NCBI GenBank assembly: GCA_021780535.1
Contig: JAJXYN010000011.1
Span: forward strand, 15,295-79,294
DNA from: a bacterium
Lineage (GTDB): Bacteria; Patescibacteriota; Patescibacteriia; JAGPKW01
Direction: 5' to 3'
DNA length: 64,000 nt
The notes beneath the pieces are model-generated. The model was not told the origin of the DNA. It did no database searches and saw nothing but the letters and a program-made list of their open reading frames with translations. Made by a program: the position numbers and the translations under genes. The number at the start of each line of letters is the position of its first letter. Positions within the stretch are counted from its first letter, which is position 1. Shown here piece by piece: positions 9,646 through 60,249 of the stretch.

Positions 9646-9672
9646 ATTCGGCAGAAATGCCGATTTTTTTAA
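9646..9672 (+). terminator. rho-independent terminator after aspS
   Basis: TCGGCAGAAATGCCGA followed by TTTTTTT. Confidence 0.5.
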
Positions 9673-9731
9673 TTGATTTTTATTGAAAAATACGATAAAA
9701 TTTAAAAATAATATTACCTTAATATAAAAAA

Positions 9732-10031: not shown

Positions 10032-11444
10032 ATGAATTTAAAAGATTTAAATATAAAAAAAATACATAACTCATTTCTAAATAAGGAATATTCTTGTACT
10101 GATTTGATTAATAATTATTTTGAAAAAATTAACGAAATTAATTCTGATTATAATATCTACACTAGTTTAAATAAAGAAAATGCTTTAAATCAGGCTAAAA
10201 TTATTGATGAAAAGATTGCAAAAGGTGAAGTTTTAAGAAAACTTGATGGTATTCCTTTTTCTGTCAAAGACTCTATTTGTACATTGGAATGTAAATCTCA
10301 AGCAGGTTCTAATATTTTAAAAGGTTTTGAAGCTACTTATAATGCTACTGCTGTTGAAAAATTAATTAATGAAGGAGCTATTCTAATTGGAAAGACTAAT
10401 TGTGATTCTTTTGGTCATGGTTCTTCTACAAAAAATAGTGATTACGGAATTACAAAAAATCCATATTCTTTAGACCATGTTGCTGGTGGATCTTCTGGTG
10501 GTGCTGCAGCTTCTGTTGCTTTAAATACTTGTACTTTTGCAATAGGAGAAGATACTGGGGGTTCAATTAGAGAACCAGCTTCTTTTTGTGGTATTTATGG
10601 TTTAAAACCATCTTATGGGAGAGTATCAAGATATGGTGCTATAGCTTATGGTTCTAGCCTTGATACTATTGGGCCGCTAGCTAATAATATGCTAGATATT
10701 GAAATAGTCCAAAAAATTATTGAGGGATTAGACGAAAAAGATGCTACTACAATAGAAGATAAAAAAATTATAGAACTAGAAAATAAAACAGTGAAGAAAA
10801 TTGGAATTATTAAAGAATTTTTAGATAATGGGCTAGATTTACGAATTAGAGATTTATTTGATAAAAAATTAGAAGAATATGAAACCAATGGTTTTGAAAT
10901 TCAAGAATTTCATTTACCATCAACAAAATATGCTGTTGCTTCTTATTATTTAATAGCTTGTTCTGAAACCTCTTCTAATTTATCTAGGTTTGATGGTGTT
11001 AAATTTGGTTTTAGAGCCCCTAATGTTACAAAATTAGAAGACATGTATCTCCAAACAAAAGAATATGGATTTTCTTTTGAAACAAAGAAAAGAATAATTC
11101 TTGGAACGTATGCATTATCAGCTGGCTATGCTGATAAATATTATAAAAAAGCTTGCTCTGCTCGTAGTCTTATTAAACAAGAATTGGAAGATATTTTAAA
11201 AGAAGTTGATTTTATATTAACTCCAACGAGTCCTGTTCTACCTTATGAAATAAATCCAATAAAGGAAATAGATCCAATGACTGAATATCTTGCTGATATT
11301 TATACCGTGATTCCTAGCCTTGCTGGAGTTTGTTCATTAAATGTGCCTATCGGGTTTGTAGAGAAATTACCGGTTGGAATGCAGATTATTGGTGGTGTAT
11401 TAGATGAAAATAAAGTTATGGAATTCGCAAAAATACTTGGCTAA
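10032..11444 (+). CDS. gatA: Asp/Glu-tRNA amidotransferase subunit A (amidase)
   Basis: Amidase signature GGSSGGAAASVA and a Ser-cisSer-Lys-type core, 470 aa. Confidence 0.9.
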   Translation: MNLKDLNIKKIHNSFLNKEYSCTDLINNYFEKINEINSDYNIYTSLNKENALNQAKIIDEKIAKGEVLRKLDGIPFSVKDSICTLECKSQAGSNILKGFEATYNATAVEKLINEGAILIGKTNCDSFGHGSSTKNSDYGITKNPYSLDHVAGGSSGGAAASVALNTCTFAIGEDTGGSIREPASFCGIYGLKPSYGRVSRYGAIAYGSSLDTIGPLANNMLDIEIVQKIIEGLDEKDATTIEDKKIIELENKTVKKIGIIKEFLDNGLDLRIRDLFDKKLEEYETNGFEIQEFHLPSTKYAVASYYLIACSETSSNLSRFDGVKFGFRAPNVTKLEDMYLQTKEYGFSFETKKRIILGTYALSAGYADKYYKKACSARSLIKQELEDILKEVDFILTPTSPVLPYEINPIKEIDPMTEYLADIYTVIPSLAGVCSLNVPIGFVEKLPVGMQIIGGVLDENKVMEFAKILG

Positions 11445-13622: not shown

Positions 13623-14267
13623 ATGAAAAAAATATTTTTATTAATATTGCCCATATTCTTTATTTTTTCTTCTAATGTAGGTGCATTGGAAAAAAGAGCC
13701 TGCACCACGGATTATACACCTGTTTGTGGGGTTGACGGTGTTACTTATAGTAATACTTGCACGGCAAATAAAGTAAAAGTTGCTTACACTGGTGAGTGTA
13801 AGATTAAACCATGTACAAAAAGTTATGTACCAGTTTGTGGTTTGGTACAGATTGAATGTATAAAAGCTCCTTGTAATCCTATCTTTGAAACATTCACTAA
13901 TAAATGCGAACTAAATAAAATTAAATCTGCTAAATTAGCATATAAAGGTGAGTGTAAAGAAAAAATACTTGGACCAAGCAAAATAAAATATTATAAAAAT
14001 ATTACAAAATATGGAAACGATATTTTTGGAAATAAAAAAACTGATATTGAAATTCAAAATACAATCTATAATATAATAAAAAATTCGAAATCAGAGTGTG
14101 TCATTGGAGGCCAAAAAACTTTTAATAAAGTTGTAAACAAGGGTGATGATTTCCTAAGATTTGAAGGATCTACTACTAAAAAAGGATGCGGATTTGCATG
14201 TATTTATAAATTAGATACTAATACTATAGAATCTGGTTGGATGTGTACTGGACTTATTATCAAATAA
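13623..14267 (+). CDS. secreted protein with two Kazal-like inhibitor repeats
   Basis: Signal peptide, then CTTDYTPVCGVDGVTYSNTC...GEC and CTKSYVPVCG...TNKC...GEC, which match the Kazal core PVCGxDGxTYxNxC. Confidence 0.5.
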   Translation: MKKIFLLILPIFFIFSSNVGALEKRACTTDYTPVCGVDGVTYSNTCTANKVKVAYTGECKIKPCTKSYVPVCGLVQIECIKAPCNPIFETFTNKCELNKIKSAKLAYKGECKEKILGPSKIKYYKNITKYGNDIFGNKKTDIEIQNTIYNIIKNSKSECVIGGQKTFNKVVNKGDDFLRFEGSTTKKGCGFACIYKLDTNTIESGWMCTGLIIK

Positions 14268-23426: not shown

Positions 23427-23457
23427 CCACGAGAGATTATCTCGTGGTATTTTTATT
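23427..23457 (+). terminator. rho-independent terminator
   Basis: CCACGAGAGATTATCTCGTGG followed by TATTTTTATTT, preceded by a smaller hairpin AGGTTTTCAAAAACCT. Confidence 0.55.
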
Positions 23458-34437: not shown

Positions 34438-35829
34438 ATGCAAGATATTATTTCTATTGTTGGTACGGGATTTGTTGGGCTTACTACCGCTGCTGTATTT
34501 GCTAATGCTGGATATAGAACTTATACAATTGATACTGATGAAAATAAGATAAATACTATTAAATCAGGTAAATCTCCTTTTTATGAACCTGGTATTGATG
34601 GCTTTGTTGAGAGAGCTATTACTATTGGAAATCTTATTCCTACCACTTCATATTCTGAATCTATACCAAATTCTAATATTGTTTTTATTTGTGTTGGAAC
34701 TCCATCAAATGAAGATGGTAGTGTTGATTTAAAATATGTTTTTGAATCAGTTTCTTCTATTATAGAAAATGCAAATTCAGACTTAATTATAGTTCAAAAA
34801 TCTACCGTACCCGTTGAAACTGCTAGAAGACTAGAGAAAATGATTCAAGAAAAGAACAAAAAAAACATTAAGATAGATGTTGTATCTGCACCAGAATTCT
34901 TAAGAGAGGCGTCTGCTGTTTTTGATACTCTATTTTTTGACAGATTGGTTGTTGGTGCTAGAAATAATGAAGCTGCAAATAAAATTATAGAGATATATAA
35001 AAATGTTGACTCTTTTTCTAAGGTTATAAATTATGAAAAATTTATTGATTATGCTTTTAACAATACTAGTAAAAAATATTTAGATAATTTACCGCTTTTT
35101 GAAAAAAGAATACTTAGAACAAAGGTGGAGAGCGCTGAATTATTAAAAGTTACTGCTAATTCTTTCTTAGCAATGAAAATTTCTTTTGCTAATTCTATTG
35201 CTAGAATTTGTGATGAAACCGGGGCTATCTCAAAAGAGGTTATGGACGGTATTGGCATGGATTCTAGAATAGGAAGATCTTTTCTTTACCCTGGGCTTGG
35301 ATATAGTGGTGGGTGTTTTCCAAAAGATGTTTCTGGTATGATAAATACAGCAAATGAATATAATGTTGACTTTGGAATATTAGAAGAAGTAAAAAAAATT
35401 AATTCTGGACAAATTAATATTGTCGTAAATAAATTGAAAAGATTAATTGGAGAAAATTTAGAAGGCAAGAAGATTACAGTTCTTGGTTTATCTTTTAAGC
35501 CAGGCACTAGTGATATTAGAAAATCTCAATCTATTTATTTAATAAAAAGATTAATAAAACTTGGAACTATTGTAAATGCTTTTGATCCTAAGGCCACAGA
35601 TGAAGCTAAAAAAGAATTTAATGATAAGAATTTAAATTATATGAATTCTATAGAGTCTGCATGCCAATCATCTGATTGTGTTGTTATTGCAACAGAATGG
35701 AATGAATTTGTAAATTTTGATTATAACTCAATTAAAGAAACTTTAAATAATAAAAATATATTAGATTGTAGAAATTGTTTAAATAAAGATAAAATTACCG
35801 AATCTGGATTTAATTATATTGGATTTTAA
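34438..35829 (+). CDS. ugd: UDP-glucose 6-dehydrogenase
   Basis: N-terminal Rossmann fold IVGTGFVGLTTAAVF; UDPG/MGDP dehydrogenase central and C-terminal domains. Confidence 0.85.
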   Translation: MQDIISIVGTGFVGLTTAAVFANAGYRTYTIDTDENKINTIKSGKSPFYEPGIDGFVERAITIGNLIPTTSYSESIPNSNIVFICVGTPSNEDGSVDLKYVFESVSSIIENANSDLIIVQKSTVPVETARRLEKMIQEKNKKNIKIDVVSAPEFLREASAVFDTLFFDRLVVGARNNEAANKIIEIYKNVDSFSKVINYEKFIDYAFNNTSKKYLDNLPLFEKRILRTKVESAELLKVTANSFLAMKISFANSIARICDETGAISKEVMDGIGMDSRIGRSFLYPGLGYSGGCFPKDVSGMINTANEYNVDFGILEEVKKINSGQINIVVNKLKRLIGENLEGKKITVLGLSFKPGTSDIRKSQSIYLIKRLIKLGTIVNAFDPKATDEAKKEFNDKNLNYMNSIESACQSSDCVVIATEWNEFVNFDYNSIKETLNNKNILDCRNCLNKDKITESGFNYIGF

Positions 35830-35838
35830 TTTGTGTGG

Positions 35839-35864
35839 TAGGTGCAAGGCATACCTTGCACCTA
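35839..35864. repeat. GC-rich perfect palindrome (REP-like) that may serve as the ugd terminator
   Basis: TAGGTGCAAGG-CAT-ACCTTGCACCTA. Its arms resemble the palindrome inside the RAYT gene at 53554-53581. Confidence 0.45.
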
Positions 35865-35945
35865 TATATTAATGTTTTTTATTTACTTTTTTTATGATTT
35901 AATGTATTTTATATCAACAACAAACAAACTGGAGGACGACTAACT

Positions 35946-43702: not shown

Positions 43703-43868
43703 TAATATAAATTCCTTCGGGACTACAAAGATGTTTAACATCTTTGGGAAAAAGCTTTTATTGAATTATGTCCATAAAAGTTTACAACAATGGCTTCGGC
43801 CCTCCCTCTAGTTAATTCTAGTAGGGTAAAAATTGAAAAACTACGCAATTAATTTGCGTAGTTTTTCT
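43703..43868 (+). ncRNA. candidate small RNA (promoter-to-terminator unit) converging on the MazF-like gene
   Basis: Starts downstream of the 43672 promoter. Contains CCTTCGGG and the perfect hairpin CAAAGATG-TTTA-ACATCTTTG, and ends at terminator hairpin CTACGCAATTAATTTGCGTAG plus T-run. Confidence 0.25.
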
Positions 43869-51891: not shown

Positions 51892-52010
51892 GCTTTTTTA
51901 TAAAATAGGGTAGAGATACTCTATTTTAGTTTAATTCTTTAGTTTTTTAGTTTTGAATTTTATTTTTATTTGACGTATTATTATTTTTTGATATAATTTA
52001 AATAATAACG
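51892..52010 (+). repeat. direct repeat DR1 (terminator-like hairpin plus TTGACG-16-TATAAT promoter)
   Basis: Near-identical to 52741-52859: CTTTTTTATAAAATAGGGTAGAGATACTCTATTTTAGTTTAATT...TTTATTTGACG(T/G)ATTATTATTTTTTGATATAATTTAAATAA. Confidence 0.65.
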
Positions 52011-52098
52011 AGACGCCCGGGACAAATTCCAGGGGAAAAGATATTTCGTAAGATTTATCTACTGGGCTGTCTGGCCACCTTTGATGGTGGCTTTTTTA
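52004..52098 (+). ncRNA. candidate roughly 95 nt small RNA, cis-antisense to the 3' end of the DUF3800 gene
   Basis: TTGACG (51970-51975) and TATAAT (51992-51997) with a 16 nt spacer. Then a GC-rich segment CGAGACGCCCGGGACAAATTCCAGGGG...CTGGGCTGTCTGG ending in terminator GGCCACC-TTTGA-TGGTGGC plus TTTTTT. Confidence 0.3.
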
Positions 52099-52654
52099 GT
52101 TCTATAACTTTATATTTTAATATTTTTTTTAATATAATATTTAAATCATTGTCTAATTTATTTTCATTATCAAAATAATATCTAAAAAAACCTGCGATAT
52201 AATCAGCAATTTTTATACCTATAGAATTATTATCTTTTATGGTTCTTATTTTACTTATAGATACATTTCTATCTCTAAAGTATTTTTTAATTTTTCTATC
52301 ATATTTTTTGGATTTTTTACCATCAATAAAAACATAATTATTCTTATCATTTTCAATAAAATCAATTAAAGAGCTTTCTAATTCTTTTTCTTGATTTATT
52401 GGGTTTATTAATATTTTTATTTTAAAATTTACTTTTTGATCTGCTATTTCTTGTAAAACTCTTTTCTTAACATTCCAATTATCCTCACTCCAATGAAATG
52501 ATTTGATTTTTAATATCTTTTCTAAATCAATAATTATCTTTTCTATAAAAACATAATTATCTTCATTTATAAACACAAAAGCAAAACACGAATACTTTAT
52601 ATCTTTATTTACACCAGATTCATCTATAAATATATAAGTTTTTTCTTTTTCCAT
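52055..52654 (-). CDS. DUF3800 domain protein
   Basis: N-terminal YIFIDESG and C-terminal IKIADYIAG motifs are typical of DUF3800. The last 13 codons read through the GC-rich + strand terminator hairpin. Confidence 0.6.
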   Translation of the reverse strand: MEKEKTYIFIDESGVNKDIKYSCFAFVFINEDNYVFIEKIIIDLEKILKIKSFHWSEDNWNVKKRVLQEIADQKVNFKIKILINPINQEKELESSLIDFIENDKNNYVFIDGKKSKKYDRKIKKYFRDRNVSISKIRTIKDNNSIGIKIADYIAGFFRYYFDNENKLDNDLNIILKKILKYKVIELKKPPSKVARQPSR

Positions 52655-52936: not shown

Positions 52937-53323
52937 TTAAAACATTAACTCTCTTAGTCTTTCTTTTAATAGGGCAAAATCATCTTTTGATATATATCCT
53001 ATTTTTCTATCTATTCTTTTTGAATCTATTAATCTTATTTGAGAAAGAATTGCAAATGATTTTTTATTTAAAAATACAAATTCAAAATGATATTTATCTT
53101 TATTAACTTTACTCGTAAGTGGAATACAGACAAAAATTCTATTATTAAATTTTTTTAAAATTAAAACTGGCCTTTCAAATTCAAAACCACCACCATTTTG
53201 TTCAAAACCTATATTTTTACCTAGATTAACAAAACAAATTTCTCTTTCTTTATAGAACACTATTTTATCCTTATCTTCTATTTTCTTTTTTAGACTATTC
53301 CATTTATCAAATTCTTTTTCCAT
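52937..53323 (-). CDS. MazF/PemK-family toxin-like protein (orphan paralog)
   Basis: Paralog of 43841-44233 (EREICFVNLGKNIGFEQNG...RPVLILKK...IPLTS...SQIRLIDSKRI). Its 5' leader and first four codons are identical to those of the DUF3800 gene. Confidence 0.65.
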   Translation of the reverse strand: MEKEFDKWNSLKKKIEDKDKIVFYKEREICFVNLGKNIGFEQNGGGFEFERPVLILKKFNNRIFVCIPLTSKVNKDKYHFEFVFLNKKSFAILSQIRLIDSKRIDRKIGYISKDDFALLKERLRELMF

Positions 53324-53344: not shown

Positions 53345-53842
53345 CTATTTATTATTTCTATCCCCATTCCACATTTTTGGATTATTGATAATATAACGTT
53401 TTATTTTTAAATATTCTATTTCGTTACGAATTATATGATCATGAAATGATTTTTGCCATTTGAAATAATATGGTTTTATTTTATTGATTTCACGGGATGC
53501 AGACGATTTAAATAAACCAATGATTAATGATAATAATTGATTATTACGTTCCCGTAGGTGCCAGATTAATCTGGCACCTACATCACAATTTTTATTTATT
53601 TCAAAAATAAAATGTAAATGATTCGGCATTATACAATATTCATGTATTATTATTGTTTTATGAAAATTTTCTATATTTAATATTTTATTTTTCACAATTA
53701 TACCAATATTGTTTAAAATCATTTTATCGTTTTCAATATTTCCAAAATATGGATATCTATCACCAGTGCATATTGTAATAAAATAAAATCCATTATTTGA
53801 ATAATTCCATTTATTCCATCTGTTATTCTTATTTTGATACAT
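53345..53842 (-). mobile_element. IS200-like Y1 (HUH) transposase of the REP-associated tyrosine transposase (RAYT) type
   Basis: HUH motif MPNHLHFIF, GLFKSSASREIN, and C-terminal FKWQKSFHDHIIRNEIEYLKIKRYIINNP (WQ..FHDH.IR.E...YI..NP, the RAYT signature). A 28 bp perfect palindrome sits inside the ORF at 53554-53581. Confidence 0.7.
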
Positions 53843-54534: not shown

Positions 54535-54648
54535 ACTCATATTTATGTTGTACAAAAAATAGTTGCCCATATTTGTTATGGGCATTTTTATTTTAAAATA
54601 AAAAAAGACGCCATTGTTATTGGCGTCATCTGTTAAATCCTTACGGGT

Positions 54649-59544: not shown

Positions 59545-60249
59545 ACCAAGATAAGGAATGAGCGAATTCCTCAGCATGAAGTTGCGGATTCCCATTCTGA
59601 ATCTCTGGCGGCGATCCACATCCTAGTGGTTAGCGCCGAAGAACATCCCGCCCCAAACCGCATCGGGGCAGAAAAAACAAACGGAGGTGAAACAGAATGC
59701 ACTGGTTCGAACGTTGTGGGGAAGACCCCCACTCAGCTAGCAACCGCTAGCTTCTCCAACCATCGACATCCTCGGGCATCTTCGTGTGGCCGACGATCTG
59801 CTGCCGCCCCGCCAAAAAATCCTTTTCTACAATGAAAAGGGGTTGGTCAAGTTGGTCGTCACCCACACATCTATTCCTTTTCCGGCCCCTTGCTCCTCCC
59901 CGCAAGAGGCACGACCGGAGGAAGGATCTCTAGATCCCCCTAACGCGTTCCATCGCGAGCGCCCAAAATAGCCCATGAGTCATCGACCTTGTCTGGCTCT
60001 AGGTGGGCTTCTCCCCGTACGCGTCTCCTTATTGGGCCTGTGGCATATCGCCTGGCCCTACGGGACGCCCAAGAACGGGTTGAGATTCGGGCGCAACTTC
60101 CGCGCCAGCCGTGGGGGATCTCAACGCCTTCCTGCTATGGTAAAAGCAGGACATTGATTCGTCAATGCAAACTCTTATCCGGTAAGTCCCGGAACACGTA
60201 AGAGAGTTACCCCCCGATATTCAAATGAGTATCGGGGCTCTTTTTATTT
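59545..60249 (+). other. roughly 700 nt GC-rich island with many local hairpins; candidate large structured ncRNA or horizontally acquired fragment
   Basis: GC is far above the flanks. It has its own promoter and the terminator 60212-60249. Stem-loops include GGAATGAGCGAATTCC, GCCCCAAACCGCATCGGGGC, AGCTAGCAACCGCTAGCT, CCTTTTCTACAATGAAAAGG, GGATCTCTAGATCC, GTTGAGAT...ATCTCAAC and CCTGCTATGGTAAAAGCAGG. Only short overlapping ORFs in several frames. Confidence 0.35.
60212..60249 (+). terminator. rho-independent terminator closing the GC-rich island
   Basis: CCCCGATATTCAAATGAGTATCGGGG followed by CTCTTTTTATTT. Confidence 0.55.

Follow-up and report, generated by a model that had tools for sequence, protein, structure and literature searches.

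The gene at 53345..53842 of the 64,000-nucleotide stretch of DNA analysed here (hereafter, the window) probably encodes a RAYT (TnpA_REP) of subclass 2.4, or Group 4, and the perfect 28-bp palindrome inside its reading frame is, on the same reading, a copy of the enzyme's cognate 'double-foot' REP that is carried as a tolerated passenger. An in-frame REP inside the gene is a published hallmark of TnpA_REP subclass 2.4 that has been known since 2018, and the earlier note's description of a REP within the transposase gene as unusual accordingly falls. In the original classification (Quentin, Siguier, Chandler, Fichant 2018, BMC Genomics 19:475), subclass 2.4 is equated with Bertels' RAYT Group 4 and is characterized by the motifs NH[IFV]H, WQ and YIxNNP, by a highly variable insertion between beta3 and alphaC, and by 'double foot' REPs, with 5' GT[AG]G and 3' C[TC]AC, which lie in frame within the tnpAREP genes (PMC6006769). 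Group 4 has been reported from Cyanobacteria, Chlorobia, Caldilineae and other classes (Bertels et al. 2017, PMC5581495), and in-frame GTAG REPs have been described in unrelated genes (Di Nocera et al. 2013, PMC3733652). No later publication on subclass 2.4 or on double-foot REPs came up in a literature search. Beyond the published picture, we observed that the repeats occupy phases 0 and 1 only, that identical 28-mers recur in proteins that are about 50% identical, and that the centre of the repeat is itself palindromic.

Several independent comparisons identify the product of this gene, at the level of sequence and predicted structure, as a RAYT-type Y1 HUH enzyme, that is, a domesticated single-stranded DNA transposase (Table 1). 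The protein matches Pfam PF01797 (Y1_Tnp) with 26.5 bits, above the cut-off of 23, and its best and only NCBIfam match is NF047646 (REP-associated tyrosine transposase), with 65.5 bits, below the equivalog cut-off of 80. The only PDB match to a profile of 51 homologs is E. coli TnpA_REP (4ER8), and the same structure (4er8_A) is the top Foldseek match (E 2.8e-6) to the alignment-based AlphaFold2 model (pLDDT 87, pTM 0.81), with further matches to 2vjv_A and 2xma_B, the IS608 and ISDra2 TnpA structures (E to 1e-5). These results bear out the earlier assignment of the gene to the RAYTs, which had been made from the HUH and tyrosine motifs. All columns that are invariant among the 51 aligned homologs, including Y150, I151 and N154, are present in the window protein, which carries the Y---NP signature of TnpA_REP class 2 as YIINNP at residues 150-155; N154, at Y+4, corresponds to the residue that serves E. 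coli TnpA_REP as its third metal ligand (PMC6006769). Because H75, H77, W129, Y150 and N154 are all among the invariant residues, the enzyme looks intact.

Table 1. Features of the RAYT gene and of the REP-like elements in the window (positions are those of the window; ".", no strand assigned)
Feature	Position	Strand	Evidence
RAYT / TnpA_REP gene, probable subclass 2.4, 165 aa, apparently intact	53345..53842	-	ORF, Pfam, NCBIfam, alignment, AlphaFold2, Foldseek
HUH motif H75-L76-H77, predicted metal-binding catalytic motif	53612..53620	-	CAT TTA CAT; H75 and H77 invariant (51 homologs)
W129-Q130, WQ motif conserved in REP-associated subclasses	53453..53458	-	W129 invariant, Q130 nearly so (51 homologs)
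Y150-I-I-N-N-P155, predicted catalytic tyrosine motif YIxNNP	53378..53395	-	TAT ATT ATC AAT AAT CCA
In-frame 'double-foot' REP, perfect 28-bp palindrome GTAG-GTGCCAGATTAATCTGGCAC-CTAC	53554..53581	.	sequence, stem scan, folding
Free-standing GTAG-footed hairpin, 11-bp stem, 4-nt loop, 3' end CTAT not CTAC	35838..35865	+	

More than 7,900 proteins match the window protein. The nearest relatives are encoded in metagenome contigs, and the named, more distant homologs come mostly from Patescibacteria MAGs. The window holds a single RAYT copy, whereas two paralogs (P0004 and P0007) are found on a 549-kb contig of a relative (ERZ21831265:ctg81933l). A contig that codes for one of the ORFs of the window is part of assembly GCA_021833805.1. 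With respect to the subclass, the protein, judged by its motifs, fits subclass 2.4 in WQ, in YIxNNP and in the variable insertion between the HUH strand and helix alphaC, and its REP agrees with those of the subclass in the 5' GT[AG]G and 3' C[TC]AC ends, in keeping the frame, in lying in a peripheral loop, in the low number of copies within the 64 kb and in scattered taxonomic distribution. The window departs from the subclass in the leucine of the HUH motif (NHLH as opposed to the published NH[IFV]H), in the 26% GC of the host and in the lack of a flanking extragenic REP. The first of these departures, together with the NCBIfam score under the equivalog cut-off, counts against the explanation that we favour.

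The palindrome itself (GTAGGTGCCAGATTAATCTGGCACCTAC at 53554-53581) is perfect over all 28 bp, every base of the centre being paired by symmetry. The earlier note had reported such a palindrome inside the reading frame, and its coordinates proved exact. GC-containing stems were searched for directly, a general repeat search being swamped by AT-rich low-complexity inverted repeats, and only six GC-containing hairpins were found in all 64 kb of the window, in which the GC content is 25.9%; no other 28 bp of the region are as rich in GC as the REP. From base composition, the number of 14-bp perfect stems with at least 7 G/C pairs expected per window is 1.8e-5, which places the palindrome far from chance and argues against coincidence. 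As single-stranded DNA, the element is predicted to fold with -13.7 kcal/mol (z -6.2). Searches of Rfam with this hairpin and with the second one at 35838-35865 identified no family for either, and a literature search on the sequence strings returned primer lists only.

Within the gene, the palindrome begins at codon position 1 of V88 and encodes VGARLIWHL and the first base of R97, so that GTAG...CTAC is read in phase 0, free of stop codons. In the AlphaFold2 model, pLDDT values below 50 are confined to residues 89-92, within a modelled coil (83-96) that connects the HUH strand (75-82) to a long helix (97-122), and the palindrome-coded residues 88-97 form the sole internal low-confidence loop. 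In the alignment to the profile of 51 homologs, this stretch is a gap in 4ER8, and every aligned homolog contains a block of variable length and sequence right after the HUH motif, in which strings of the type VGxxx..SLQ recur. The segment is thus absent from 4ER8 and variable among homologs, in agreement with the suggestion of the earlier note that the repeat is an insertion that preserved the frame.

Comparison of the relatives indicates that the DNA of this segment is conserved whereas the peptide is not. The closest genes might seem to suggest the opposite: all four encode VGAR-x-IWHLR, as would be expected if this peptide were conserved for protein function and the palindrome were a by-product. 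In the DNA alignment of the four genes, 26 of the 28 palindrome positions are invariant, and the flanks are indel-rich and poorly conserved. An identical 28-mer (28/28 bases) lies at the same place in L205, the protein of which is 54% identical to that of the window; in L201 and L203 (62% and 64% protein identity, respectively), the 28-mer differs in the central dinucleotide alone and dyad symmetry is kept, the central dinucleotide in the clade of the window being TA, AT or GC. Across the wider family, 15 genes have the start of GTAG in phase 0 and 9 have it in phase 1; no gene has it in phase 2, where TAG, a stop codon, would be read. The palindrome being read in phase 0 or phase 1, the peptide differs, and the products of the two phases are unrelated (VGTGRDLSLQ and VETHGRASLQ as opposed to GRDRSRPVPT and CRDVACNVST). 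Moreover, identical 28-mers occur in different phases in L008 and L040, the core proteins of which are 56% identical, and in L015 and L025 (51%). The phase data already refute both coincidence and conservation of VGARLIWHLR for its own sake: the peptide takes the form VGxG..SLQ, VETxx.SLQ or RDxxxxVST depending on the phase, while the palindrome persists in the DNA, and the segment is modelled as a low-confidence loop. We therefore regard this alternative as hardly credible. For annotation, 'VGxx...SLQ' and 'RDxxxxVST' peptides are to be taken as translated REPs and not as protein motifs.

Identical 28-bp REPs were also noticed in RAYT genes of different phyla, for example, Chloroflexota and Bacteroidales (L056/L075; L015/L025; L008/L040), in proteins that are only about 50% identical and sometimes in a different phase. 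From these sequence comparisons, it seems that the repeat either evolves at a lower rate than its enzyme or is transferred from one lineage to another.

The palindrome is a recurrent feature of the family. Out of 500 or more genomic loci found, we collected 80 from many phyla and searched the stretch from the HUH to the WQ motif; a gene model could be recognised in 73. Of these 73 genes, 35, spread over many phyla, contain in this segment a perfect, GC-containing palindrome no shorter than 10 bp, usually in the form GTAGRGAC-N12-GTCYCTAC, exactly 28 bp long and located in the same loop after the HUH motif. The density of palindromes in the HUH-WQ segment is 2.74 per kb compared to 0.081 per kb outside ORFs, an approximately 34-fold enrichment. 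Exactly 28 nt is the length of 50 of the 57 double-foot elements, and 46 of the 57 have no unpaired centre. Among the distinct 28-mers with paired outer 12 bases, the central tetranucleotide is self-complementary in 32 of 34, against a chance expectation of 1 in 16. In other respects, the segment is variable. About half of the homologs contain no intact palindrome or only a decayed half (for example, ...CTAC), the distance to the HUH motif varies between 19 and 111 nt, and the number of copies per gene between 0 and 3. Two or three in-frame copies or tandem half-copies were found in L006, L071, L074 and L201, which fits a dynamic repeat. In L201, in-frame tandem left-half copies (GATGTAGGTGC...) at 10230-10370 precede the full palindrome and are translated as VGAMDNDMGVMDNDVGAVCNDVGAICNDVGARYIWHLR. 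L074 has half-copy arrays of a similar kind, and the proteins L070 and P0005 contain peptide repeats, likewise in frame, that are related to them.

A self-complementary centre is unable to pair in a hairpin, and passive insertion leaves it unexplained; a perfect palindrome offers the same hairpin on either strand, and in duplex form it might be recognised by a symmetric dimer. Conceivably, the element might be a double-stranded operator or recognition site of such a dimer, for example, a regulator or a component of a restriction-modification system, unrelated to hairpin formation or to the RAYT. The perfect dyad, which extends over the central 4 nt in nearly all distinct 28-mers, and the fixed length of 28 bp are compatible with this possibility. 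It is nevertheless very improbable, given that the foot of the element is the GTAG typical of REPs, that the element accompanies RAYT genes in different phyla and is concentrated at the ends of these genes, and that no candidate binding protein is conserved beside it. Furthermore, the inner 12 nt vary by lineage yet stay complementary, which is easier to reconcile with a structural requirement than with a protein-binding site of fixed sequence.

Among the copies outside the gene, 22 of 49 are located within 250 bp of the ends of the ORF. Copies that adjoin the gene and are identical or nearly identical were found upstream in L025 and L031, on both sides in L030 and, twice, downstream in L075, whereas the four extra copies in L026 (Microcystis) differ from the intragenic one by a compensated change of a G:C pair to an A:T pair. 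Among the close relatives of the window gene, the same 28-mer occurs both inside the gene and free-standing: in L203, 28 bp upstream of the start codon, and in L201, 6 kb downstream. The 28-bp palindrome thus behaves, in sequence comparisons, as the cognate repeat of the RAYT, as the earlier note had surmised. A second, different double-foot REP (GTAGGGGCGCATTGCAATGCGCCCCTAC) was observed in L203 at 9670-9697, inside the 3' end of dprA (DNA_processg_A), just upstream of the RAYT gene; as it differs from the REP in the RAYT gene, two REP types are present in one genome.

The same body of data bears on the principal alternative to the passenger reading, namely, that the intragenic REP is a selected cis-acting site. 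Such selection could take either of two forms. The hairpin, in the gene or in the transcript, might be bound or nicked by the RAYT encoded there, or it might slow down expression, with the level of the enzyme being self-limited as a result; or else, the intragenic REP might serve as a protected 'master copy' through which substrate and enzyme stay physically linked. Passive insertion does not easily explain why the intragenic site is the most consistently occupied REP position. The same loop is filled in about half of a very diverse set of homologs, and the intragenic copy, the most consistently present REP of the locus, is at many loci the sole one in a range of about 5 kb; neither in the window nor in L205 was any other perfect copy seen. 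Selection on the DNA would also be in line with the identity of the 28-mers at 54% protein identity and, across phases, at 51-56%, and the length fixed at 28 bp, combined with a self-complementary centre that a hairpin does not need, speaks for a cis site or a master copy. There is a precedent for the control of expression by hairpins in IS200 transposases (PMC3733652). Against a selected site, about half of the homologs lack the intact palindrome or retain half of it in decayed form, its distance from the HUH motif and its copy number within the gene vary widely, tandem half-copies occur, and free copies of identical sequence are found in non-coding DNA. On balance, we consider selection for a cis-acting function unlikely, albeit the most serious of the alternatives.

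Returning to the window, the one other element that resembles the intragenic REP is the intergenic hairpin at 35838-35865, which reads G-TAGGTGCAAGG-CATA-CCTTGCACCTA-T and lies 9 nt past the stop of the UDP-glucose dehydrogenase ORF (34438..35829), upstream of an HD-domain ORF. The earlier note had pointed to the likeness between the two palindromes, and it holds: both share the GTAGGTGC...GCACCTA arms, although the inner stems differ, and the pattern TAGGTGC-N-GCACCTA occurs twice in the window compared to 0.00 times in 100 dinucleotide shuffles. Both elements start with GTAG, as required in the 20-40 bp GTAG-type REP family (Di Nocera 2013), and the predicted folding energy of the hairpin as single-stranded DNA is -12.5 kcal/mol (z -5.1). 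We take it to be a probable diverged member of the REP family to which the intragenic element belongs. Its distance from the gene (17.7 kb) and its different inner stem, in the only related hairpin of the window, weigh against the explanation favoured here. No extragenic GTAG hairpin was found within 1 kb of the RAYT gene, the one at 35838-35865 being the nearest, and the REPtron arrangement is therefore incomplete in the window; the 6-7 kb contigs found when extending the ends of the window contain no GTAG palindromes.

Other readings of these repeats were considered and rejected. The hairpin at 35838 was ruled out as a terminator, its stem being followed by no T tract. The earlier idea of REPINs also had to be abandoned, each of the two elements being a single compact double-foot palindrome with no nearby partner, as opposed to an inverted pair of REPs with a spacer. 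For the exact GTAGGTGC octamers at 13677 and 45717, no convincing second arm could be made out, and both were set aside as chance occurrences or decayed remnants; at 13677-13710, GTAGGTGC is followed 17 nt on by GCACCAC, which may be a remnant of a decayed REP or chance. The four other GC-containing perfect hairpins of the window (43835-43867; 60212-60237; 23427-23447; 54607-54627), the longest of which is GAAAAACTACGCAA-TTAAT-TTGCGTAGTTTTTC with a 14-bp stem, are not GTAG-footed and may be terminators. A scan of metagenomes for GTAGGTGC-N(4-24)-GCACCTAC retrieved 120 stretches from unrelated, mostly GC-rich contigs and is no measure of copy number in the host; none of the 120 contained the sequence of the window, and a RAYT-like ORF was found near only one. 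In one GC-rich metagenome contig (L179, positions 1-370), seven tandem 51-bp units each carry a GTAGGTGCA-AAAG-TGCACCTAC hairpin. A CRISPR was ruled out in this case, the sequence between the hairpins being repeated as well, which makes the array a tandem repeat.

The neighbourhood of the gene contains several features that we record here in their own right. A PemK/MazF-like toxin ORF (52937-53323, minus strand; PF02452, 48.3 bits), with no obvious antitoxin ORF seen, lies 21 bp past the RAYT stop on the same strand, and in L203 a PemK gene is located three genes upstream of the RAYT ortholog. At 52005-52076 on the plus strand, the Rfam DUF3800-II RNA motif (RF02961) scores 64.5 bits compared to a gathering score of 43.2; it lies on the strand opposite to a DUF3800 ORF (52055..52654, minus strand) and overlaps the 3' end of that ORF.

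Taking the passenger reading as the working explanation, the origin and persistence of the intragenic copy can be envisaged as follows. When the DNA becomes single-stranded during replication, the repeat would be extruded as a hairpin with a 12-bp stem and a 4-nt loop and, the palindrome being perfect, either strand would extrude the same hairpin. The enzyme would recognise the GTAG foot and the stem, and would cut and rejoin the DNA via Tyr150 and the HUH-bound metal, by analogy with IS608 and with E. coli TnpA_REP, in which the GTAG foot is essential for recognition and cleavage (PMC3479197, PMC8266576). REP copies accumulate preferentially beside the gene, as the locus counts show, and a copy that landed between the HUH strand and the long helix, the loop where the repeats are indeed located, would be translated as a disordered linker of about 10 residues that the protein presumably tolerates. 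With phases 0 and 1 open and phase 2 stopped by TAG, only in-frame, stop-free copies in this one permissive loop would survive. Uniformity of the intragenic copy would then be maintained by RAYT recognition or by conversion from other copies, and not by selection on the peptide.

This arrangement shares features with several other known systems and differs from each of them. The window enzyme appears to have the same fold as E. coli TnpA_REP (REPtron, 4ER8), and its repeat likewise has GTAG at the foot of the hairpin. The E. coli REPs, however, possess a single unpaired GTAG foot, a bulged stem and a loop, and are extragenic, flanking the gene, whereas in the window GTAG pairs with CTAC in a perfect palindrome, one copy is intragenic, and the protein, unlike 4ER8, has a REP-coded loop. 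As in the REPIN-RAYT system of Pseudomonas (Bertels and Rainey 2011, PMC3116915), an apparently domesticated single-copy Y1 transposase coexists with short palindromic repeats, but the Pseudomonas REPINs consist of two inverted REPs with a spacer and are extragenic and present in hundreds of copies (PMC3116915), in contrast to the compact 28-bp palindrome of the window, which forms no doublet and has two related copies in 64 kb. The GTAG-type REP family (Di Nocera 2013) is described as high-copy, dispersed and mostly extragenic, and the 64 kb of the window hold the two related copies. A further parallel is found in the intragenic REPs and Rickettsia palindromic elements (PMC3733652), in-frame insertions that are translated as extra surface residues, and L203 likewise has a double-foot REP within the 3' end of dprA; the published cases are scattered over unrelated genes, whereas here the host gene encodes the presumed mobilising enzyme and the same loop is used family-wide. 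Finally, the Y1 HUH fold and, by analogy, action on single-stranded DNA hairpins relate the enzyme to the TnpA of IS200/IS605 elements (IS608, ISDra2); the multicopy state, the subterminal hairpins at both ends and the adjacent tnpB of these elements were not seen in the window.

Taken together, these results make the window a clear case of a curiosity that is on record but not widely known, namely, a domesticated transposase whose gene carries, in frame, a copy of the repeat that the enzyme presumably mobilises, and they extend the subclass to a very AT-rich genome that is probably Patescibacteria-like. The confinement of the repeat to phases 0 and 1, the identity of palindromes in proteins that are about 50% identical and the palindromic centre all bear on whether the internal copy has a function. 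Should that copy turn out to be a cis site or a master copy, a single gene would unite the enzyme with its substrate, and selection acting on the DNA would preserve the combination. The site might then allow the RAYT to limit itself, or both strands to be processed symmetrically, and would offer a handle on the unsolved role of RAYTs and REPs.
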